This document shows, piece after piece, positions 1-36,067 of a DNA stretch of 40,799 bases; position 1 is the first letter of the stretch; each line of letters opens with the position of its first letter. The translations under genes were made by a program, and so were the position numbers. Source of the stretch: Candidatus Falkowbacteria bacterium LH_S3 (GTDB lineage: Bacteria; Patescibacteriota; Patescibacteriia; Patescibacteriales; JAGXOH01); contig JAGXOH010000003.1 in NCBI GenBank assembly GCA_023659985.1, positions 1 to 40,799 of the forward strand, given 5' to 3'. A model generated the notes under the pieces. It searched no databases and had not been told where the DNA came from. It saw only the letters and a program-made list of their open reading frames with translations.

Positions 1-147
1 CTTTAAACAACATTAATTATCCCCAAAGTGTAACCTTGACCCTGCAACAGTACAAGACTTGCCAGTAGCTAAAGTGCTGAGCTTATTGTTAATTATTTTA
101 TTTTTTTGTCATTAAAGCCAAAGTGCCTGCAAGTAATTATTTTTATT

Positions 148-1641
148 ATGCTTCCTGATTTTATTTTAAATATCTTAAACCGGATTGAAGATAAAGGTTT
201 TGAGGCGTATGCAGTAGGGGGATGCGTACGTGATTTGTTAATGGAAAGAAATAATTATTTTGGGGACTGGGATATAACCACCAATGCTTTGCCTGAAAAT
301 ATTTTAGAGATATTCCCAGAGGCTAAATATAATAATGATTTCGGCACTGTTCTCGTTCCTTATGAGGATGAAAGCAATGGCAAATCAGTGGTGGAGATAA
401 CTACCTTTCGTTCTGAGAGTGACTATAGTGATAGGCGGCATCCGGATAAGGTTATCTTTGAAAAATATTTGGATAAAGATTTGAACAGAAGGGATTTCAC
501 TATTAACGCTTTGGCTATGAAACCTAAAGATAGTCAAAAATCCATTCCTTCAGATATCAAGAAATGGACTTTTGAAAAAAACAATTATGTTATAATTGAT
601 CTTTTCGGAGGAGTGAAAGATATGGACAAAAAGATTATCCGGGCAGTAGGAGAGCCAGTTGATAGGTTCAGGGAAGATGCTTTGAGAATGATGCGGGCTA
701 TTAGATTCGCTTGCCAATTGGGTTTTTCCTTAGAATATAAGACAGAGCGGGCTATTAAGAAAATGGCTGGTTCTTTGAAGTTTATTGCCAATGAAAGAAT
801 ACGGGATGAATTAATTAAAGTACTGGAATCAGAGTATGCGTCCGAAGGAGTGATGCTTCTTCATAAAAATAAATTGCTTCAATACATTTTACCTGAATTG
901 GAGTTAGGATTAGGAGTCAAGCAGGATCGTCATCATATCTATACCGTGTTTAAGCACTCGGTTCTTTCCCTTAAGAGTTGTCAGAACAAGGATTGGCGGG
1001 TAAAATTAGCCGCGCTCTTACATGACGTCGGCAAACCTAAGGTTAAAAAAATTATTAACGGTCAAGCCACTTTTTATAACCATGAATATGTTAGCGCCAA
1101 AATGATGTCCAAGATAGCTCAGAGGTTAAATCTTTCTAATAAAGATAGTGTAAAAATTATCACTTTGATTAAAAATCATATGTTTTATTATAATGTTGGA
1201 GAGGTTACCGCCAGCTCTGTCCGTCGTTTAATAAGAAAAGTAGGAGAAGACAACTTAAAAGAACTTATTGATATTAGAATGGCAGACAGATTGGGTTCCG
1301 GAGTTCCAAAAGCCAAGCCTTATAAATTAAGGCATTTGGAGTATATGATGAAAAAAGTAAGTAAGGATCCGATATCAGTAAAAATGTTAAAAATAAACGG
1401 TGATGATTTAATGAAAAAGTTGGAACTAAACCCTGGGCCTAAAATTGGAGCTATACAGGAAGTCCTATTATCCGAAGTCTTAGATGACCCAAGTTTGAAT
1501 AACAAAAGATATTTGCTAAGGAGAAGCAAGGAACTAAAAGAAAAACAGTTAACTAATTTAGCCAAAAAAGCTAAAAGAAAGATAGGCCAAGAACAAGAAG
1601 AGCAGGATAAAAAAATAAAACAAGAATTTAGCGTGAAATAA
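148..1641 (+). CDS. cca: CCA-adding tRNA nucleotidyltransferase (class II) with HD domain
   Basis: Motifs [33 protein letters not shown] and LLHDVGK. ATG at 148 preferred over the track's TTG at 106. Confidence 0.92.
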
Positions 1642-2108: not shown

Positions 2109-4913
2109 ATGCGTAAAATTTTAGAAAAATTAGCAGGTGATCCAAATGAAAAAATACTTAAAACATTTCGTCCTTTGGTTAAGAAAATAAATGAATTTGA
2201 AGATAAATTTTCTAACATGAGTAATGATGAATTACAAGGAATGACTCGTCATTTTCAGGAAAGATTGGGGGTGGAGAATAAGACCAGAGAAGAAGTTTGG
2301 GGTAATGAAGAAAAAATAGATGAAAAAATGGAGGAAATATTACCAGAGGTCTTTGCCGTGGTTAGGGAGGCTGCTAAAAGAAAGTTAGGCCAAAGACATT
2401 TTGATGTTCAGCTTTTAGGAGGCATTAGTCTACATAAAGGCCAAATTGCGGAGATGAAAACAGGTGAGGGCAAGACTCTGGTTGCTATTCTGCCTATTTA
2501 TCTTAACGCTTTGACTAAAAGAGGGGCTCACTTAGTAACCGTTAATGACTATTTAGCTAAGATGGGTTCTGGCTGGATGGGGCCAATATATACTTTTTTA
2601 GGTATGAGTGTGGGAGTAATAACTCATTCTGCTTCTTATGTATATGATGAGGAATATTCAGATGATAACGAATATGATGAGAGGTTAAGTCATTTTCGGC
2701 CTGCTCAAAGGCAAGAAGCTTATAGTTGCGATATTGTTTACGGAACCAATAATGAATTTGGGTTTGACTGTCTTCGTGACAATATGGCTCACTCTTTCAA
2801 AGATCAAGTTCAAGGAGAGTTAAATTTCACCATTATTGATGAAGCAGATTCTATTTTAATTGATGAAGCCAGAACTCCTTTGATTATCAGCGCTCCGGCA
2901 GAGGAGTCCACTGATAAATATTTTCAATTCGCTCGGCTTGTAAGCAGATTGCAAGAAGAAGAAGATTATAATGTAGATGAAAAAATGAAAGCAGTTACTT
3001 TAAGCGAGCAGGGGATAAGTAAAATGGAGAAGTGGTTGGGTATGGATAATATTTATGTGGAAAAAGGTATTCAAGAAGTTCATCATATTGAACAGGCTTT
3101 AAAGGCTCAAGTATTATTTAAGAGAGAAAGGGATTATGTAGTAAAAGACGGTGGGGTTGTTATTGTTGATGAATTTACAGGCAGATTAATGCCTGGCAGA
3201 AGATATAGCGAAGGCCTCCATCAAGCTATAGAAGCAAAAGAAAATTTAGAAATACAAAGAGAATCTCAAACTTTAGCCACTATAACATTTCAAAATTTTT
3301 TTAGAATGTATAGAAAAATAAGTGGTATGACTGGCACGGCAGAAACAGAGGCTGAAGAATTCTCTCAGATTTATCATCTGGAAACAGTGGTTATTCCAAC
3401 TCACAAACCTATGATAAGAAAAGATTATAATGATTTGGTTTTCAGAAATGAAAATGGTAAGTTTAAGAGTATTATTAAAGATGTGGAAGAAAGAAATAAA
3501 AAAGGACAGCCTATCCTGATAGGCACAATTTCTATTGAGAAAAATGAAAAATTAGCTGAAATGATGAACAGAGAAGGTTTAAAACCGGAAGTGTTAAATG
3601 CCAAAAACCATGAAAGAGAGGCGCAAATAATTTCTCAAGCCGGTCAGCCTGGAGTTATTACTATTGCCACTAATATGGCAGGCCGAGGTGTGGATATTGT
3701 ATTAGGAGGAAATCCCCCTAACCAGGAAGAGCAGGAAAAAGTAAAACAAGTTGGAGGTTTGCATGTATTGGGCACAGAAAGGCATGAAGCTAGGCGAATA
3801 GACAATCAATTGCGAGGCAGGTCTGGTCGTCAAGGAGATTCCGGGTCTTCACAGTTCTATGTTTCGGCTGAAGATGATTTGATGCGTATATTTGGGGGAG
3901 AGAGAATGCAAAAGATTATGAGGACCCTTCAAGTTTCAGAGGATACTCCGGTAGAAAATAAAGTTGTTTCTCGATCTATAGAGTCTGCCCAGAAAAAAGT
4001 GGAAGGGAATAATTTTGATATCAGAAAACATTTGGTTGAGTTTGATGATGTTATTAACAAGCACAGAGAAGCTATTTATGGCAGACGCAAAGAAATATTA
4101 AGGCTATCTGAAGGTAAGGAAATATCTTCCACTTCTTCAGAGACCACTTATTCTGATTTGTCAGCCATAGTATTGGAAATGGTGGAAAATGAAATTGAGC
4201 AAGTAGTTAGTCTTCATACCGCGGCTGAAGATATTAATAATTGGGATATGGAAAAAGTTTATCAAGCAATATTCACTATTTTTCCAGTAAAAGAAAAGTT
4301 AAAACAAGATTTGTTTAAACAGACAGGAGGTGATAATAAAAAATTAGATAAAGCAAAAATAAGAACCGTTATTATTGAACATTTAATGAAGTTGGCTAAT
4401 GATAATTATAAGGAGATAAAGAATCAATTTCAAGCTGCAGGATTGGGAGTGGATTGGTATTCAATTGAAAAGAGTGTGTTGCTTCGTTCTATAGATACTC
4501 TATGGGTAGAGCATCTGGACGCGATGAGCCGCTTACGCCAAGGAGTTGGTTTACGCGGTTATGGTCAGCGCGATCCGTTAGTTGAATATAAAAAAGAAGC
4601 TTATAGGATGTTTAATGAATTAAATGATATGATACAGAAACAGGTGGTATATAGTATTTATAAGTTAAGTGCTATAGATAGTTCTTTCGGAGATACTTTT
4701 GCCGCTCCTACTTTAGCTGAGAGAGCCAGACAATTTCAAGCTCCATCCAAAACAATGAGCTCTTATAGCGGAGCTGATACTTCTTCAGGGAATTCTACTA
4801 CTACAACAATGAATGTTTCTAAGCCCAAAAATAATCAAGGAGAAAAAGTGGGCAGGAATGACCCATGTCCATGCGGGAGCGGAAAAAAATATAAAAAATG
4901 TTGCGGACGATAA
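2109..4913 (+). CDS. secA: Preprotein translocase ATPase SecA
   Basis: EMKTGEGKT, IIDEADSILIDEARTPLIIS, QLRGRSGRQGD and C-terminal SEC-C motif GRNDPCPCGSGKKYKKCC. Confidence 0.99.
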   Translation: MRKILEKLAGDPNEKILKTFRPLVKKINEFEDKFSNMSNDELQGMTRHFQERLGVENKTREEVWGNEEKIDEKMEEILPEVFAVVREAAKRKLGQRHFDVQLLGGISLHKGQIAEMKTGEGKTLVAILPIYLNALTKRGAHLVTVNDYLAKMGSGWMGPIYTFLGMSVGVITHSASYVYDEEYSDDNEYDERLSHFRPAQRQEAYSCDIVYGTNNEFGFDCLRDNMAHSFKDQVQGELNFTIIDEADSILIDEARTPLIISAPAEESTDKYFQFARLVSRLQEEEDYNVDEKMKAVTLSEQGISKMEKWLGMDNIYVEKGIQEVHHIEQALKAQVLFKRERDYVVKDGGVVIVDEFTGRLMPGRRYSEGLHQAIEAKENLEIQRESQTLATITFQNFFRMYRKISGMTGTAETEAEEFSQIYHLETVVIPTHKPMIRKDYNDLVFRNENGKFKSIIKDVEERNKKGQPILIGTISIEKNEKLAEMMNREGLKPEVLNAKNHEREAQIISQAGQPGVITIATNMAGRGVDIVLGGNPPNQEEQEKVKQVGGLHVLGTERHEARRIDNQLRGRSGRQGDSGSSQFYVSAEDDLMRIFGGERMQKIMRTLQVSEDTPVENKVVSRSIESAQKKVEGNNFDIRKHLVEFDDVINKHREAIYGRRKEILRLSEGKEISSTSSETTYSDLSAIVLEMVENEIEQVVSLHTAAEDINNWDMEKVYQAIFTIFPVKEKLKQDLFKQTGGDNKKLDKAKIRTVIIEHLMKLANDNYKEIKNQFQAAGLGVDWYSIEKSVLLRSIDTLWVEHLDAMSRLRQGVGLRGYGQRDPLVEYKKEAYRMFNELNDMIQKQVVYSIYKLSAIDSSFGDTFAAPTLAERARQFQAPSKTMSSYSGADTSSGNSTTTTMNVSKPKNNQGEKVGRNDPCPCGSGKKYKKCCGR

Positions 4914-12314: not shown

Positions 12315-12387
12315 AGCGGGGTGGAGCAGGTGGCAGCTCGCCAGGCCCATAACCTGGAGGTCGTAGGTTCGAATCCTACCCCCGCAA
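12315..12387 (+). tRNA. tRNA-Met(CAT), initiator type
   Basis: fMet-like GCGGGGTGGAGCAG...CCCCGCAA, 1:72 mismatch, CAT anticodon; no encoded CCA. Confidence 0.9.
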
Positions 12388-12429
12388 CATTCTCATTGAT
12401 AATTTTTATAATTTAAGTTCAATCAGTAA

Positions 12430-12501
12430 GCCGGGGTAGCTCAGTGGTAGAGCAAATGACTGAAAATCATTGTGTCATGAGTTCAATTCTCATCCCTGGC
12501 A
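12430..12501 (+). tRNA. tRNA-Phe(GAA)
   Basis: Cloverleaf with anticodon arm AATGA-CTGAAAA-TCATT; no encoded CCA. Confidence 0.93.
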
Positions 12502-12550
12502 CATTTTCGTTTATAATTTCAGGATTTAATTTATGAATCTTAAATAAGAA

Positions 12551-12624
12551 CGGAGTGTGGCCTAGATGGCTAAGGCGCGTGCTTTGGGAGCACGAGATCC
12601 CGGGTTCAAGTCCCGGCGCTCCGA
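12551..12624 (+). tRNA. tRNA-Pro(TGG)
   Basis: CGGAGTG/CGCTCCG acceptor and anticodon arm CGTGC-TTTGGGA-GCACG. Confidence 0.93.
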
Positions 12625-12730
12625 CCCTTAAAATTAGAAGTCAGAAATTAACAGTCGTGAATTAGTTTGGTGAAGATATAAATTTTTATTATGATAATTC
12701 GTAATTAATAATTTGAAATTTTTTATTTCT

Positions 12731-13009
12731 ATGCCTAATACAAAATCAGCTAAAAAAGAATTAAAAAAGAACGCAAAACAAAAGGTTTATAACCAAGACA
12801 TTAAAGGTAATGTCAAAAATTTAATGAAGAAGAGCCAAAAAGCCATACTGGCCAGGGAAGATGGTGCTAAAGATTTGCTGTCCCAAACTTTAAAAGCATT
12901 GGATAAAGCGGCTCAAAAAGGCGTTCTTAAAAAGAACACGACTGATAGAAAAAAATCTAAGATACACAAGTTGTTTAATAAGAAGACAGCGGAAAAGAAA
13001 GATAAATAA
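12731..13009 (+). CDS. rpsT: 30S ribosomal protein S20
   Basis: MPNTKSAKK...LDKAAQKGVLKKNTTDRKKS. Confidence 0.95.
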   Translation: MPNTKSAKKELKKNAKQKVYNQDIKGNVKNLMKKSQKAILAREDGAKDLLSQTLKALDKAAQKGVLKKNTTDRKKSKIHKLFNKKTAEKKDK

Positions 13010-13045
13010 TTTTTATTGTTCCAGCAGTGTTTATTTTATTTTTAC

Positions 13046-13071
13046 AAGAACAGGGCATTACCCTGTTCTTT
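13046..13071 (+). terminator. Stem-loop after rpsT
   Basis: AAGAACAGGG-CATTA-CCCTGTTCTT, a perfect 10-bp stem. Confidence 0.65.
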
Positions 13072-13095
13072 GGTTCATATTATCATTTAATTAGG

Positions 13096-13168
13096 GCATC
13101 CTTGGCTCAGGGGTTAGAGCGCTGCCTTCACACGGCAGAGGTCGTAGGTTCAAATCCTACAGGATGCA
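13096..13168 (+). tRNA. tRNA-Val(CAC)
   Basis: GCATCCT/AGGATGC acceptor and anticodon arm CTGCC-TTCACAC-GGCAG. Confidence 0.92.
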
Positions 13169-13170
13169 CT

Positions 13171-13400
13171 AAGAAAATTTGCTTTCAGCAAATTGCCAAA
13201 CGTTGAAAGTTGAAAGTTGAAAGAATAAATTGAATTAAGCAAAGCTTAATTGTTGAAGGTTGAAGGTCGAACGTTGAAGGTTGAAAGAAAAAAATGGTTA
13301 ATTATTGAAAGTTGAAAGAATAATTTGCCGAAGACAAATTTAATGCCAAATATATTCTTACAGCTTAGAGCTTTGAGCAATTTTCCTTAGGAGGAAAATT
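13171..13400 (+). repeat. Hairpin + (GTTGAAN)n array
   Basis: Same units as 7153-7645, including AATTAAGCAAAGCTTAATT and GTTGAAGGTCGAACGTTGAA. Confidence 0.9.
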
Positions 13401-13424
13401 TTTTAAGTATACGTTTGTTGTAAC

Positions 13425-13496
13425 GGGCCTGTAGTTCAGGGGTAGAACGCCGCGTTCGCAACGCGGAAGTCATCGGTTCAAATCCGATCAGGTCCA
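13425..13496 (+). tRNA. tRNA-Ala(CGC)
   Basis: G3:U70 identity pair and anticodon arm CCGCG-TTCGCAA-CGCGG. Confidence 0.93.
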
Positions 13497-13655
13497 CCCC
13501 TAAAAAGAATATAAATCCGGAAGCCGAAAAGTTTTTGTATTTGTTGGTCACTAAGATAAGACTTTTGCTAAGGCAAAGACTTTTTTGAATTCAAAGCATA
13601 AATTGGGGTGTTTTGTTTTTACATTTAAGTTTTTGGACTTTTGGAATTAATAACT

Positions 13656-28215: not shown

Positions 28216-29040
28216 ATGATAGGAGTATTAGATTCAGGCTTAGGAGGACTTACTTTCTTAAAAGAGTTTTCAGATGCATTGCCTGGCTATAGTTTTGTTT
28301 ATCTAGGAGATAATGCCAGAGCACCCTATGGCAACAAATCACAAGAAATTATTTATAAATACACTCGCCAAGGAGTGGAATTTCTTTTTGACAAAGGGTG
28401 TGAGCTTATAATAATCGCGTGTAATACCGCATCAAGTGAACCCCTGAAAAAAATCCAACAAGAATTTCTCCTTGAAAAATACCCTGATAAAAACGTTTTG
28501 GGAGTAATTGTTCCCACTGTTGAAGGTGCTATGCAGAGTATAAATTATAATTCTAAAAAAAATAAAATAGGAATCATCGGAACCAAAGCGACTATGGAAT
28601 CCAAAAGTTATGACCAAGAATTTAAAAAACTATCTCCAAAAGTAGAAATATACAAAAAAGCCACCCCTTTGCTAGTGCCTTTAATTGAAGAGGGATGGCT
28701 GGATAGACGGGAAACTAAAATGATATTAAGGTATTATCTGCGAGACTTGAAAAATAATAAAGTAAATACATTAATCTTGGGATGCACTCATTATCCAGTG
28801 CTACATAAAACAATACAAGGAATAGTCGGATCTCAAATCAATGTAGCGGATGCTCCTAAAGCCGTGGCTCTACGCTTAAAAGACTATCTAACCAGGCATC
28901 CGGAAAGAGATGAAAAAATTGAAAAGAAGAGAAAGAGAATCTTTTATACCACAGATGATAAAAAAAGATTTGCCAGTATCGGACAAAGATTTTATAAAGC
29001 ACCTATTAAAAAGGTAGAAAAAATAAACTTGGAACAATAA
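28216..29040 (+). CDS. murI: Glutamate racemase
   Basis: DSGLGGL, PYG, IACNTAS and LGCTHYP. Confidence 0.97.
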   Translation: MIGVLDSGLGGLTFLKEFSDALPGYSFVYLGDNARAPYGNKSQEIIYKYTRQGVEFLFDKGCELIIIACNTASSEPLKKIQQEFLLEKYPDKNVLGVIVPTVEGAMQSINYNSKKNKIGIIGTKATMESKSYDQEFKKLSPKVEIYKKATPLLVPLIEEGWLDRRETKMILRYYLRDLKNNKVNTLILGCTHYPVLHKTIQGIVGSQINVADAPKAVALRLKDYLTRHPERDEKIEKKRKRIFYTTDDKKRFASIGQRFYKAPIKKVEKINLEQ

Positions 29041-31794: not shown

Positions 31795-33306
31795 TTAGGA
31801 GCCGAAAAGCTCTTCAACTTTTCTAAATTCATCTCCAATGTCATCCCTTTTATCCAAACGATTTCCCTTGGAATTTTCTCTAGGAATAACTCTTACTTTA
31901 GCATTGATGAAAGCATTCTTGATCTTCTGCTGAAGTTCTTTAACAACTTCACCTTCACTCCGCTCCTCTTTAATTGTTACATTAGATACCAGGTAAACAA
32001 CCCTGGTTCCATCTGAAAAAAATCCTTTTTCTTTAGAGTATCCAACACCTGATGGAACAACTTGAATCCCTTTTTTTTGAAAGTAATCAAAATCAATTTC
32101 AAGTGGCTCTCCTTTTGTATAGGATCCAGGATAACCTCTTTGTCCATCAGGTCCACCGGGTCCAACCACTAACGCAACACAAATTGAAATCTGGCTATTC
32201 CTGATCTCAGGACGAACTATATCAAAGTTTCCTTCAATCGCTGCCTGAAAAAGTGAACCAAGATTTCTAATTCGTTTTATCATCGGCTGCCATTCCGGTT
32301 CTCCAGGACGGACATTAACTTCCGATACTTGAATTGAGATTGGTCTTCCCTTATTGTCTATTTTCACAAAACATCCAGGATAGAGGACACAAGGCCTCAA
32401 GTGGTCCTTCTCTTTAAGAAATTGTATAAGAGGCATTGCAATTTGTTCTTTAACCATCTTCCTGAGGCGAAGAGATTCAAAGGGATGTGGAGAAATACTC
32501 CCCATACCTCCAGTAATAGGGTTTTGCGTTCCTCTTTCAGCAGCATATCTTTCTGGATAATCCATAGCAGTTGGCAACATACGAAATCTGCCATATCTGT
32601 CAACAAGAATAGTAAAGCTTATTTCCACTCCACTCATCAAAGACTCAATAAGCAATGGCCATTCTTTGTTGCTGTGAATTCTCTTGTAGTTGCTTTGATA
32701 ATCACGGATCAATTGATCGTAAACTGGTTTTATATCAAAAATTTTTTGGATCAATCTGGCTCCTTTGCCTCCTGCGCTATAGGGGTATTTCAATACAGCA
32801 CCACCGTAATCCTGGACTAGAGAAATGCATATCTTACGAATTTTTTCAAAATTCTTAGCATCTACTTTAAACCATTTGTCAGCTACTGGTATTTTAAATT
32901 CATCGCAGTAATATTTTGTCCAGATCTTGTCACCTTCTAGTCTGGCAGCCTTCGAGGTCAAGCCAATCACCTTGTCGCCATAGCCTACTTCAATAAGCCT
33001 ATCCACAAAACCCTCAAAAAGCAAGTCTTCCGGCATTGGAACAACGCAATCAAGTTCGCCATTTTTCAAAGCTTTCAGTGTTGCCTGAAAATAGGCTTCA
33101 ACAGAATTGTCTTCAGTTGGAATGAAGTCAATTGGGTGACCAAGTTTTTTCTGAAATTCAGGCTGTCCAGAAGTTCCACGAACAATAATTCCCTTATAAC
33201 GACCACTTTCCACTTCGCTTTTGGCAGTAGAAACCACTTGAGCGCTTAAATAAGTCCTGCCGTCGGTTCCTGCAAATCCGATTTTGTAATCACTTGTTAT
33301 TTTCAT
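31795..33306 (-). CDS. Divergent phosphoribosylamine-glycine ligase (PurD)-like ATP-grasp protein
   Basis: AARLEGDK, AGGKG, GVEISF, TGGMG, EVNVRPGEPEWQ, GYPGSY and GTRV motifs; GAGGA RBS. Confidence 0.8.
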   Translation of the reverse strand: MKITSDYKIGFAGTDGRTYLSAQVVSTAKSEVESGRYKGIIVRGTSGQPEFQKKLGHPIDFIPTEDNSVEAYFQATLKALKNGELDCVVPMPEDLLFEGFVDRLIEVGYGDKVIGLTSKAARLEGDKIWTKYYCDEFKIPVADKWFKVDAKNFEKIRKICISLVQDYGGAVLKYPYSAGGKGARLIQKIFDIKPVYDQLIRDYQSNYKRIHSNKEWPLLIESLMSGVEISFTILVDRYGRFRMLPTAMDYPERYAAERGTQNPITGGMGSISPHPFESLRLRKMVKEQIAMPLIQFLKEKDHLRPCVLYPGCFVKIDNKGRPISIQVSEVNVRPGEPEWQPMIKRIRNLGSLFQAAIEGNFDIVRPEIRNSQISICVALVVGPGGPDGQRGYPGSYTKGEPLEIDFDYFQKKGIQVVPSGVGYSKEKGFFSDGTRVVYLVSNVTIKEERSEGEVVKELQQKIKNAFINAKVRVIPRENSKGNRLDKRDDIGDEFRKVEELFGS

Positions 33307-33311
33307 TCCTC

Positions 33312-33522
33312 TTTTTGTTTTGTTTATTTTTCTGTTAAATATATCTATTTCTCTATTTCCAAAAACTAAATTTTCATTCTTTTTTTCGACTTTTTAGTTA
33401 TCCACATTTTTATTTCTTGACAAGTAATATTGGCTTGATATACTGATAATGTCTTTCGGTTCTAGATAGAACCGTTAGGGTTATACATCCTAGGGCCACC
33501 CTCTTAGTTGAGGGTGGTTTTT
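33312..33522. repeat. Copy 1 of a ~210-bp direct repeat (NYN 5' end + promoter + small RNA + terminator)
   Basis: Aligns with 34085-34295 at an offset of 773 nt. Confidence 0.95.
33449..33522 (+). ncRNA. Putative ~75-nt small RNA, copy 1
   Basis: TTGACA(33417)-N16-TATACT(33439); hairpin CGGTTCT/AGAACCG; terminator CCACCCTC/GAGGGTGG plus T5. Confidence 0.6.
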
Positions 33523-33530
33523 GTTTATAC

Positions 33531-34115
33531 TCATTCATTTTCGCGATATTTTAAATCCTTTCCCCATAATTCATTTATATCTTTCAAATCAAAGTAATCA
33601 TCCCCGCTGGTTTTTAGTTCGTGAGAGATATTATCTTTTGACGAAAAGATATAGACCTTTTTGCCACTGTTTTTCAAATAATTCACTAATGCTAAAAAAT
33701 CGGCGTCACCACTGAAAAAGATCGCTATGTTATATTTCTGGATGTTATGCATTGCGTCAATCGTTATTTCCACATCCATATTTCCTTTTTCTATGATAGA
33801 TTCTCCACTTTCGCTAATAACAGAGATTCTTTTTAACTCTTTTTTTCTTACGATAAAACCAAGCCCTTTCTTGAGATAAGTAAAAAATTTATGCTTTCCA
33901 TCCAAGTCATAATCTCTTGTCCCTGCTTTTGGATAAGCGTCATAATAAAAAATTTCAACTTGGTCTGCATTAAAATTTCTCCTAAAATAATCTTTAAGAG
34001 TTTTGTATTCAATAAACTTTTTTACCGATTTGACCGCATTCCAAATATTTGAAGCGTCAATAAAAACATACACTGTGTTTTCTGTTTTTGTTTTGTTTAT
34101 TTTTCTGTTAAACAT
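33531..34115 (-). CDS. NYN domain (LabA/DUF88, PIN-like) ribonuclease
   Basis: VFIDASN, EKGNMDVEITIDA, FSGDADF..L and GKKV..S..L...D motifs. Confidence 0.92.
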   Translation of the reverse strand: MFNRKINKTKTENTVYVFIDASNIWNAVKSVKKFIEYKTLKDYFRRNFNADQVEIFYYDAYPKAGTRDYDLDGKHKFFTYLKKGLGFIVRKKELKRISVISESGESIIEKGNMDVEITIDAMHNIQKYNIAIFFSGDADFLALVNYLKNSGKKVYIFSSKDNISHELKTSGDDYFDLKDINELWGKDLKYRENE

Positions 34116-34295
34116 ATCTATTTCTCTATTTCCAAAAATTAAATTTTTGTTCTTTTTTTCGACTTTTTAGTTACCCACATTTTTACTTCTTGACAAGTAA
34201 TATTGGCTTAATATACTGATAATGTCTTTCGGTTCTGGATAGAACCGTTAGGGTACTACATCCAAGAGCAGTCCTCCTCGCGGAGGGCTGTTTTT
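34085..34295. repeat. Copy 2 of the ~210-bp direct repeat
   Basis: See copy 1; this copy includes the real NYN start codon. Confidence 0.95.
34222..34295 (+). ncRNA. Putative ~75-nt small RNA, copy 2
   Basis: TTGACA(34190)-N16-TATACT(34212); same first hairpin; different terminator CAGTCCTCC/GGAGGGCTG plus T5. Confidence 0.6.
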
Positions 34296-34324
34296 ATTTC
34301 TTTCCCTCTTTATACTTTAATTCT

Positions 34325-34552
34325 TTACCCCAAATATCTTCTTCTATTCTTAATAAACATCTTACCATAACCATAGTAAGTTTTTAAATATTTTTCTCGA
34401 TGAGTGGCATCTTGCTGGTTTAAACAAGATTCATAATATATTAGTTTTAATGGCCTCCTATCTTTTGTTGACTCAATTAATCCTTTTTTATGTTGCTCAA
34501 ATCTTAATTTTAAATTTTCGGTATATCCAATATAAAACTTTTTGTCTTTCAT
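34325..34552 (-). pseudogene. GIY-YIG nuclease (small YhbQ-like family), 5'-truncated
   Basis: FYIGYT.NL..R..QH..G..ST..RRP..L.YYE..A..RE..LK; in-frame TAG two codons upstream and the first Y-x-Y strand is missing. Confidence 0.75.
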
Positions 34553-34608: not shown

Positions 34609-35481
34609 TTATTCACCTTTTGATACTTCTCGCACGAATACACTGTAAGTTTCGCCACTATCTAAAATAATCTTGATAACCTTGCCATTTACTTCAACAG
34701 AGGTGACTTTTTGACCCTCAATTCCTTCTTTAATTCCAGATAATCCGTCCGTGATTTGTTTCTCATGTTGTTCTTTAGCAGTGCCAATTTCAGACGGTTC
34801 GCCAAAATTTAATCCCAACGGTAATTCTTCCTCATGAGAAATGCCAATTTCGGTTTTAGCCGGCCCGAACTTGCTGGCTGGTTGGTAAAAACCAACACCT
34901 GGAATATTCTTGTAGTGTCTGTATCCTGCGGCAATCGTATGGGTCAAATAGAGAGGTCCACGACCGGAAATTAACACGGGTTTTGAAGGATCAACGTCAG
35001 GAGGAATGACTTTGTCCAAATCCTCAACCTTAAAATCGCCCGCGAGATTAAACTCAACAAGAGTATAATCTTCAGTTTCTTTTTTGACCCATGTAAATCC
35101 TTCTGGCCCGCGCCCTTCGCCTTCAGGTAATGGCTCTAAAACTTTAGTCTCACCCTTGGTCATTTCCCCTTCTGCGTCTTTTGACATGTAGGTGAAATAT
35201 CCCTCTGCCGGGTGCACGCCGTGCAACAAACTGGCAATTACCCCGGGCGAAGCAACACCGTCAATAACAATGCCTTCGGCTTTTTCATCGCGAGCAAATT
35301 TTTCAGCGTATTCGTACGCCAATCGGTCATGCTCCGGACCAAAAGTAATGCGGCCCTGTTGATCGGGTTGTAACCCAATCTCGCGGGCAAAATCGTTAAT
35401 CGACAACTTTTCAATTTTTGACTCGCCTTCTTTGATTTCTTGAGGCATCTGTGCCTCAGGTGTGAAATTTTTTTCGTTCAT
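34609..35481 (-). CDS. Tandem Csx3/Crn3-like domain protein
   Basis: C-terminal half PPDVDPSKPVLISGRGPLYL...YRH...FYQP...ISH resembles Csx3; N-terminal half IVIDGVASP..IASLLHGVHP resembles a degenerate copy. Confidence 0.65.
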   Translation of the reverse strand: MNEKNFTPEAQMPQEIKEGESKIEKLSINDFAREIGLQPDQQGRITFGPEHDRLAYEYAEKFARDEKAEGIVIDGVASPGVIASLLHGVHPAEGYFTYMSKDAEGEMTKGETKVLEPLPEGEGRGPEGFTWVKKETEDYTLVEFNLAGDFKVEDLDKVIPPDVDPSKPVLISGRGPLYLTHTIAAGYRHYKNIPGVGFYQPASKFGPAKTEIGISHEEELPLGLNFGEPSEIGTAKEQHEKQITDGLSGIKEGIEGQKVTSVEVNGKVIKIILDSGETYSVFVREVSKGE

Positions 35482-35990: not shown

Positions 35991-36067
35991 TGGTCGGGGA
36001 TGTGGGACTTGAACCCACGACCTCCACAACCCGAATGTGGCGCCCTAGCCATCTGGGCCAATCCCCG
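35991..36067 (-). tRNA. tRNA-Pro(CGG)
   Basis: Reverse complement CGGGGAT...CCACA-TTCGGGT-TGTGG...ATCCCCGACCA. Confidence 0.95.

Follow-up and report, generated by a model that had tools for sequence, protein, structure and literature searches.

What does it mean when a single nuclease gene is bordered on both sides by what appears to be the same small RNA? This question is raised by a stretch of 40,799 nucleotides (nt), here called the window, from Candidatus Falkowbacteria bacterium LH_S3 (contig JAGXOH010000003.1 of assembly GCA_023659985.1), in which the gene of a NYN-domain protein, a predicted ribonuclease (RNase), lies between two copies of a promoter-driven, structured small RNA. The initial annotation regarded the gene flanked on both sides as a design and proposed that protein and RNA form a toxin-antitoxin, defence or RNA-guided module. 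Judged from comparison with related loci, the window holds two neighbouring copies of a mobile cassette that joins a NYN gene to one small RNA; cassette A (33417-34115) is intact, and cassette B has kept its RNA (34190-34299), its own convergent NYN gene having been replaced by a GIY-YIG gene.

The association between the RNA and the NYN gene was followed in 72 genome loci with close NYN relatives (54-92% identical; labelled with L-numbers), whose metagenome-assembled genomes (MAGs) carry the labels of many different Patescibacteria lineages and, in a few cases, other labels, together with one isolate, Niastella vici DJ57 (L066). Sequence searches failed on the RNA, so that a covariance model was needed to find it: BLAST in 60 relatives returned promoter-like fragments only, a 27-nt pattern of the RNA with up to three mismatches was present in 0 of 315 other genomes of the order, and a regular expression matched 17 of the 72 loci. 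An exact-pattern scan of metagenome contigs gave two loci, in both of which the RNA lies on the opposite strand to the adjacent NYN homolog and converges on it. The covariance model (R1), built from 20 copies, produced one strong match in 68 of the 72 loci (49-110 bits, E values from 1e-23 to 4e-9), all 68 of them facing NYN from the other strand, immediately beyond its stop codon. The loci without a match are L090, L092 and L093, whose contigs end in or near NYN, and L098, which holds only a 41-amino-acid (aa) NYN fragment. Every intact gene is accompanied by the RNA, in 60 of 60 loci and for two of two further genes of the subfamily (62/62 together). When another 400 genomes of the phylum were searched with a profile, this subfamily (above 300 bits) turned up in two; generic NYN paralogs, at about 100 bits or less, are present in many (263 of 401 genomes matched the profile), and the model found the RNA in 0 of 27 loci of these other paralogs. 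As for known RNA families, Rfam gave no match in the region at the gathering score, and only two chance-level matches (21.9 and 21.7 bits) at E values up to 10, which places the RNA in no known Rfam family; nor was a description of a NYN-small RNA pair found in the full-text literature, supplements aside. Consequently, the RNA is conserved beside this NYN subfamily and dedicated to it, and the contrast of 62/62 with 0/27 makes a toxin-antitoxin or defence module a reasonable reading, as had been proposed; the RNA-guided part of that proposal fares poorly, as discussed below.

The contact between both genes is also regular. Among the 60 intact loci, the NYN open reading frame (ORF) overlaps the 3' end of the RNA in 42, abuts it in 7 and stands 1-14 nt away from it in 11; the gap in the window is 5 nt. 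Moreover, decay is asymmetric, as the RNA is kept beside a broken NYN gene in seven loci, and likewise in L025, in window copy B and as an orphan in the same-genus genome G001, and an intact NYN gene lacking the RNA was seen in none of the loci examined. The orphan (L100; C4:27019-27097, minus strand) scores 72 bits, has a poor promoter and no adjacent NYN gene, and lies near an IS200-like transposase fragment. A second, weak RNA match of 29.7 bits was noticed on contig C27 of the same genome.

Regarding the RNA itself, it measures about 72-76 nt and is laid out as a 5' hairpin (P1), a single-stranded core and an intrinsic terminator. In an alignment of 71 sequences, 98.6% of the cells assigned to helices pair, against 40-55% when the partners are slid. 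P1 extends to 12 base pairs (bp), with 91.7% pairing and with both partners changed in 7 of the 12, and has a UU/UU internal loop in the clade of the window; 5 of the 9 terminator pairs covary. P1 is also rich in G·U pairs, which on the opposite strand, or in DNA, would become A·C mismatches; what has been selected is therefore the structure of the transcript made from the predicted promoter. The hexamers of this promoter agree with the consensus at 9 or more of 12 positions in 69 of 71 copies and at 10 or more in 56, separated by spacers that are unrelated in sequence across copies. Between the helices, the core (G)GGU(U/A)(A/U)UACAUCC is nearly invariant and single-stranded; only the hairpin loop and the first ~6 nt are variable. 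In pairwise comparisons sorted into three bins of NYN identity, P1 and core are 0.75, 0.79 and 0.92 identical, compared with 0.44, 0.47 and 0.60 for the third codon positions of NYN, indicating that the RNA sequence itself is under selection. Covariation, strand-specific G·U pairs and the retained promoter thus bear out the earlier view of the small RNA as a real, selected gene.

Some further elements were considered for this RNA. A candidate middle hairpin GGGU/AUCC, within the middle element of the initial annotation, shows no covariation and competes with the base of the extended P1. An extension of the terminator helix, which pairs in only 45.8% of the cells, was rejected, and so was a mini-ORF reading MSFGS-x-stop, which loses its ATG in L027, L030 and many distant copies. 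Pairing of the core with the NMDVE codons of NYN amounts to a match of 6-8 nt, the Asp and Val codon choice there being free of selection, and it was taken as chance.

The protein partner, NYN-A, is encoded on the minus strand at 33531-34115 and has 194 aa. It matches the NYN family PF01936 with 76.6 bits (cut-off 24.2; E 3.7e-21), and its AlphaFold model reaches a predicted local distance difference test (pLDDT) of 89, with VPA0982 (2qip, E 5e-10) and the NYN domain of MARF1 as the best fold matches. The residues D20, D114, E116, D120, D137 and D139 are invariant in 32 of 32 homologs and are the acidic residues expected for a PIN-like active site; together with the fold, this conservation indicates that NYN is under selection as an enzyme. 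NYN-A therefore shares the fold and the acidic catalytic residues of the known NYN-domain proteins (PF01936; 2qip; MARF1 6fdl and 5yaa), differing in its dedicated small RNA partner, which was not found described for them in the full-text literature. The Lys-rich leader MFNRKINKTKTENT is native to the NYN gene, as many homologs start with MFNxKxKE...(I/V)YVFIDASN. Among defence models, PADLOC assigned to the protein its generic NYN model only, besides a weak HEC-09 match (E 5e-4).

How, then, did the window come to hold two RNA copies, the only two in its genome? Both lie in a direct repeat of 221 nt (33306-33526 and 34079-34299, spaced by 773 nt), with 197 of 221 positions identical (89%), and each repeat contains a near-consensus promoter, a ~75-nt ORF-less RNA and a terminator, placing one copy on each side of NYN. 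The individual features that had been reported for the two units are present. The promoters TTGACA-N16-TATACT lie at 33417-33444 and 34190-34217 on the plus strand, each with 11 of 12 consensus positions; both units carry the hairpin CGGTTCT-AGAT/GGAT-AGAACCG and the middle element TAGGGT..ACATCC; a GC stem with a T run follows at 33492-33521 and 34264-34295; and one unit is divergent from the NYN start, the other convergent on its stop. Both units also fold better than shuffled sequences (z-scores of -5.5 for copy A and -5.1 for copy B, with 0 of 200 shuffles as good). Three points of that earlier description need correction: the repeat is far longer than the RNA unit, reaching ~110 nt upstream of the promoter to take in NYN codons 1-11; its identity varies along its length, as detailed below; and the terminator stems, which do both pair and do differ, are not completely different, having the centre CCTC...GAGGG in common. 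Small RNA copy A, the partner of the intact gene, spans 33451-33526 on the plus strand (covariance-model match 33445-33525, 104 bits), with P1 at 33452-33463/33468-33479, the core at about 33480-33494, the terminator at 33495-33503/33510-33518 and then a U tail. Copy B spans 34224-34299 on the same strand (match 34218-34298, 87.7 bits) and ends in the second terminator variant at 34264-34295.

The identity within the repeat is uneven, with 170 of 181 positions shared from the NYN leader to the RNA core and only 24 of 36 in terminator and tail, and outside the repeat it drops to chance level. Each of the two terminator variants recurs in other genomes, and that of copy B stands also beside NYN in L091 and in most of the distant members of the family. 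Past this terminator, on the NYN strand, the window retains the last 17 codons and stop of another NYN gene, IEEDIWGKELKYKEGKK followed by the stop (34294-34347, minus strand), which matches the NYN C-termini of L082, L091 and L072 and is the typical C-terminus of the NYN lineage paired with terminator variant B; for this reason, copy B is concluded to have once had a convergent NYN gene of its own. The place of this NYN-B is now taken by an ORF of 75 aa with a GIY-YIG nuclease domain (34325-34552, minus strand; Pfam E 1.4e-11), overlapping the remnant in another frame. On the other side, a remnant of NYN codons 1-11 at 33310-33342 (minus strand), in which ATG has become ATA, agrees in 31 of 33 positions with 34083-34115, the true NYN start; a similar leader remnant, broken after codon 10, is found in L043. 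Next to it, the unstranded spacer U copy A (33343-33416), which corresponds to the NYN 5' untranslated region and the upstream region of the RNA promoter, matches 69 of 74 positions of spacer U copy B (34116-34189), which serves both as the genuine 5' region of NYN-A and as the stretch ahead of the promoter of RNA copy B.

On these grounds, the 221-nt repeat is the junction between successive cassettes, comprising the NYN leader, the spacer, the RNA promoter and the 5' part of the RNA, and its terminator-side end differs because cassettes A and B stem from different lineages. A simple recent duplication was rejected as the sole origin of copy B, whose terminator and NYN-B C-terminus are of a different cassette lineage. 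Across the 72 loci, with at most one match per locus, no other has an RNA copy on the 5' side of NYN, so the flanking on both sides falls away as a conserved design: the 5'-side copy belongs to the neighbouring, decayed cassette, and the symmetrical layout of the window is explained by tandem cassettes of which one member has decayed. A related genome gives a view of the same site. A 15-kb contig from the public run X3 passes directly from 33379 to 34154, skipping 774 nt, and so has one cassette at this site; after 34353 it continues with 456 other letters and then with NYN 5' sequence and leader, in total ~588 nt, equal to a whole NYN length. The contigs of runs X1 and X2 end at the repeats. 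Recombination between the repeated junctions would give either gain or loss of a cassette.

The genes next to the tandem can be described here as well. The remnant at 33310-33342 stands in frame and just upstream of the ATG (33306) of a 503-aa GARS-like ATP-grasp gene (31795-33306, minus strand), which matches purD with 150.9 bits, well under the 288-bit cut-off, and the start region of which is built from the cassette remnant, with the NYN leader in frame upstream of the ATG. Beyond the GIY-YIG gene, a 290-aa ORF (34609-35481, minus strand) carries a Csx3 (ring-nuclease-like) domain at residues ~133-201 (Pfam 28.4 bits, cut-off 21; PADLOC Csx3 E 1.6e-10), with neither a CRISPR array nor a cas gene noticed across the window. 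Farther away lie a cluster of five transfer RNA (tRNA) genes for Met, Phe, Pro, Val and Ala (12315-13498, plus strand) and a separate tRNA-Pro(CGG) gene (35991-36067, minus strand); the gene orientation turns from plus to minus near 29040.

Several observations on the distribution of the cassette point to a mobile unit. Its NYN genes reach 92% identity between MAGs with different lineage labels and occur also in the Niastella isolate, and its presence is sporadic, in 2 of 400 genomes of the phylum by the protein profile and in 1 of 150 by the RNA model under strict filters. Among eight members of the family, the only copy is the RNA without NYN in the same-genus G001. The flanking genes vary by locus and are mostly housekeeping; about 16 loci adjoin restriction-modification, Shedu, Fic, S24-peptidase, Cas9, PIF1 or resolvase genes. 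Direct repeats of 25-100 nt, particular to each locus, bracket the cassette in at least 12 cases. On plasmids, only NYN genes of 27-31% identity were found, on nine records, and on phages none, neither source holding a close copy.

Repeat-flanked gene units have been described for restriction-modification systems with long direct target repeats (PMC2853133). The cassette resembles those insertions in being a small unit without transposase or integrase, bordered by long direct repeats of variable length (>30 bp), with a single-repeat form in a related genome, here the X3 contig. It departs from them in that the repeat, in the window and in L043, is the cassette's own end and not neutral target DNA. 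In addition, the supposedly empty, single-repeat site of X3 still carries cassette B. Tandem cassettes joined by homologous recombination would fit these observations at least as well as target duplication.

Single loci add details on the insertion sites. In L036 (~100-270, plus strand), the NYN leader is interrupted by a ~110-nt insert with 18-nt inverted repeats, AGACCAGTTGCTTAATAA and TTATTAAGCAACTGGTCT, which looks like a miniature inverted-repeat element. In L047, the cassette stands between ORFs that contain a PEP-utilising-enzyme mobile domain (2-1426 and 2167-3534), which suggests a position inside or beside a duplicated part of that gene. In L032, L035 and L037, the cassette comes directly after an Eco57I-type N6 methylase/restriction gene, upstream of NYN, and L032 has a second copy of the last ~80 nt of this gene beyond the cassette. 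In L049, an ORF with a Cas9 recognition-lobe (REC1) domain (2516-3529) adjoins the RNA side.

The upstream region of the RNA promoter holds one more recurrent element. Spacer U copy A contains a perfect match to the 9-mer TTATCCACA, the consensus DnaA box, at 33398-33406 on the plus strand, separated from the -35 hexamer downstream by 11 nt; at 34171-34179, copy B reads TTACCCACA, with one mismatch. Sequences homologous to the spacer precede the RNA promoter in L033, L034, L036 and L043. The 50 nt adjoining the -35 hexamer contain a perfect box (TTATCCACA/TGTGGATAA) in 26 of 70 copies; of 4180 background windows of 50 nt from the same loci, 5 have one. With up to one mismatch tolerated, the counts are 38 of 70 and 72 of 4180. 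The commonest arrangement is TGTGGATAAC, then 2-4 nt, then TTGACT. The host encodes DnaA, with dnaA on another contig. From this arrangement, DnaA probably tunes the synthesis of the RNA, which would tie the switch to the replication status. DnaA-regulated promoters outside oriC include those of dnaA, nrdAB and mioC in Escherichia coli and of sda in Bacillus subtilis. They share with the cassette the consensus 9-mer directly beside the -35 element of a sigma-70-type promoter; they differ in that the product here would be a mobile small RNA, and in that DnaA binding is here putative, predicted from the box.

What the pair does has to be weighed against several rivals. A toxin-antitoxin-like pair, with NYN as the toxin and the small RNA as the antitoxin, has in our estimate an even chance of being correct; it is drawn from the strongly promoted RNA, the obligatory pairing, the contact at the 3' ends, the mobility and the RNA outliving NYN. 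According to this proposal, NYN would be a growth-arresting or abortive-infection RNase that the abundant small RNA keeps off by one or both of two routes. The RNA could bind the NYN protein through its core, as type III antitoxins do, and the invariance and single-stranded nature of this core argue for such direct protein binding. It could also pair with the antisense 3' end of the NYN messenger RNA (mRNA), and RNase III of the host would then cut the duplex in the manner of type I systems. Such antisense control is allowed for by the overlap of the 3' ends and by the presence of RNase III in the host; the NYN mRNA may run antisense through the RNA gene. An unlikely elaboration is a selfish, replication-sensing cassette of ~0.8 kb, composed of a NYN toxin, a protein-binding RNA antitoxin and a DnaA-gated RNA promoter, and serving toxin-antitoxin or abortive-infection functions. 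There, a disturbance or titration of DnaA, by stalled initiation or by replicating foreign DNA, would let the RNA fall and free the RNase, and the unit would spread among distant ultra-small bacteria and into Bacteroidota, recombining at its own repeated ends.

A number of observations weigh against the toxin-antitoxin reading or parts of it. The 72 loci were gathered through NYN similarity, whereby RNA-only loci are under-sampled. For the antisense route, pairing of the RNA with the NYN 5' region was rejected (mean z -0.1, n=65), which means that antisense action would depend on transcription of NYN continuing into the RNA gene. A terminator on the NYN strand past the RNA gene is found in 8 of 66 loci, compared with 10 of 66 for the other strand, none of them consistent, and read on the NYN strand, the hairpin common to both strands is without a U tract. 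Nor does the observed invariance of the sequence follow from cis-antisense pairing alone. NYN, a soluble protein of 180-194 aa, is unlike typical type I toxins, and type III antitoxins come as arrays, in contrast to the one RNA unit found here under a promoter of its own. As for the DnaA box, only 37% of the copies have a perfect one, and genome-wide there are 15 perfect boxes for ~10 expected; the signal rests on the comparison across loci, a single site not being significant alone.

The rival closest to the toxin-antitoxin reading is a ribonucleoprotein without toxin logic, in which NYN would have the RNA as its cofactor, scaffold or specific substrate, as in a defence or RNA-turnover particle where the RNA switches on or directs the enzyme instead of holding it back. 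The strict 1:1 coupling and the invariant core fit such a specific protein-RNA contact equally well, and the defence-gene neighbours in ~16 loci agree with it; we nevertheless consider it improbable, as the RNA persists without NYN in the seven loci, L025, copy B and G001, which is expected of an antidote and less of a cofactor, and as the RNA has no variable, guide-like segment. More doubtful still is pure cis-antisense control or transcriptional interference, by which the RNA would merely set the level of an ordinary, non-toxic NYN protein. Convergent 3' overlap or abutment in nearly all loci, the strong promoter and the host RNase III are what this explanation would predict, and it leaves unaccounted for both the conservation of the RNA far above the silent sites of NYN and the sporadic, mobile behaviour of the pair.

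The two remaining explanations attract little belief. The initial annotation allowed that the first hairpin could be a DNA operator, and a broader form of this idea sees a DNA-level element, in which palindrome, DnaA box and promoter would act as operator, recombination site or replication origin of an excised ~0.8-kb circle, with the RNA incidental or a primer. The enriched DnaA box and the A+T-rich spacer adjoining it, the repeat-bounded cassettes and the one-cassette form in a relative would suit such an element. It is nonetheless very unlikely, the operator included, because compensatory changes and G·U pairs preserve the pairing of the RNA and not the DNA sequence, and because ~46% of the copies are without a box even when one mismatch is allowed; nor did the run contigs compared contain a circular junction. 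An RNA-guided nuclease, after the manner of TnpB/IscB-omega RNA or CRISPR, is the least credible, with hardly any chance of being right. A structured RNA that is dedicated to a nuclease gene and lies at its 3' end does recall those systems, but the RNA here is on the opposite strand under its own promoter, NYN has a PIN-like RNase fold and not that of RuvC or HNH, and none of the 71 copies has a hypervariable guide segment, only the loop and the first ~6 nt being free to vary.

Returning to the toxin-antitoxin reading, its relation to known systems can be specified. Type III systems (ToxIN, CptIN and TenpIN) have tandem RNA repeats upstream of the toxin in the same operon and orientation, with a terminator in between and a toxin of the ToxN/AbiQ fold. 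The cassette would share with them an endoribonuclease-type protein neutralised by a structured RNA, a possible use in abortive infection and, as suggested by the invariant core, direct contact between RNA and protein. It differs in having no repeat array upstream of NYN, the single RNA unit lying downstream on the opposite strand, and in the NYN fold of its protein. Among type I systems, SymE/SymR and RalR/RalA are pairs with nuclease toxins. Convergent antisense RNAs that overlap the toxin gene at the 3' end are known from txpA/RatA and bsrG/SR4 of B. subtilis and RCd of Clostridioides difficile (PMC6563280). With these pairs, the cassette has in common convergent protein and small RNA genes with overlapping 3' ends, a strong RNA promoter, a small, mobile and patchy pair, and a host possessing RNase III, which cleaves such duplexes. 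By contrast, its protein is a soluble NYN RNase and not a short hydrophobic membrane peptide, the sure overlap is limited to the terminator and stop-codon region, and the RNA is conserved far beyond the need of antisense pairing.

If the toxin-antitoxin reading is true, both a new toxin fold (NYN) and a new RNA family would enter the RNA-antitoxin systems, with a layout intermediate between type I, with its convergent antisense RNAs, and type III, with its protein-binding RNAs. The DnaA box at the RNA promoter suggests, in addition, a link between replication status and a mobile RNase switch, none having been found described in the literature. The idea is directly testable, as Niastella vici DJ57 (L066) is a cultured carrier and the cassette is shorter than 1 kb. 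For the Patescibacteria, a group of candidate phyla, it would provide the first functional handle on one of their few conserved non-coding RNAs.

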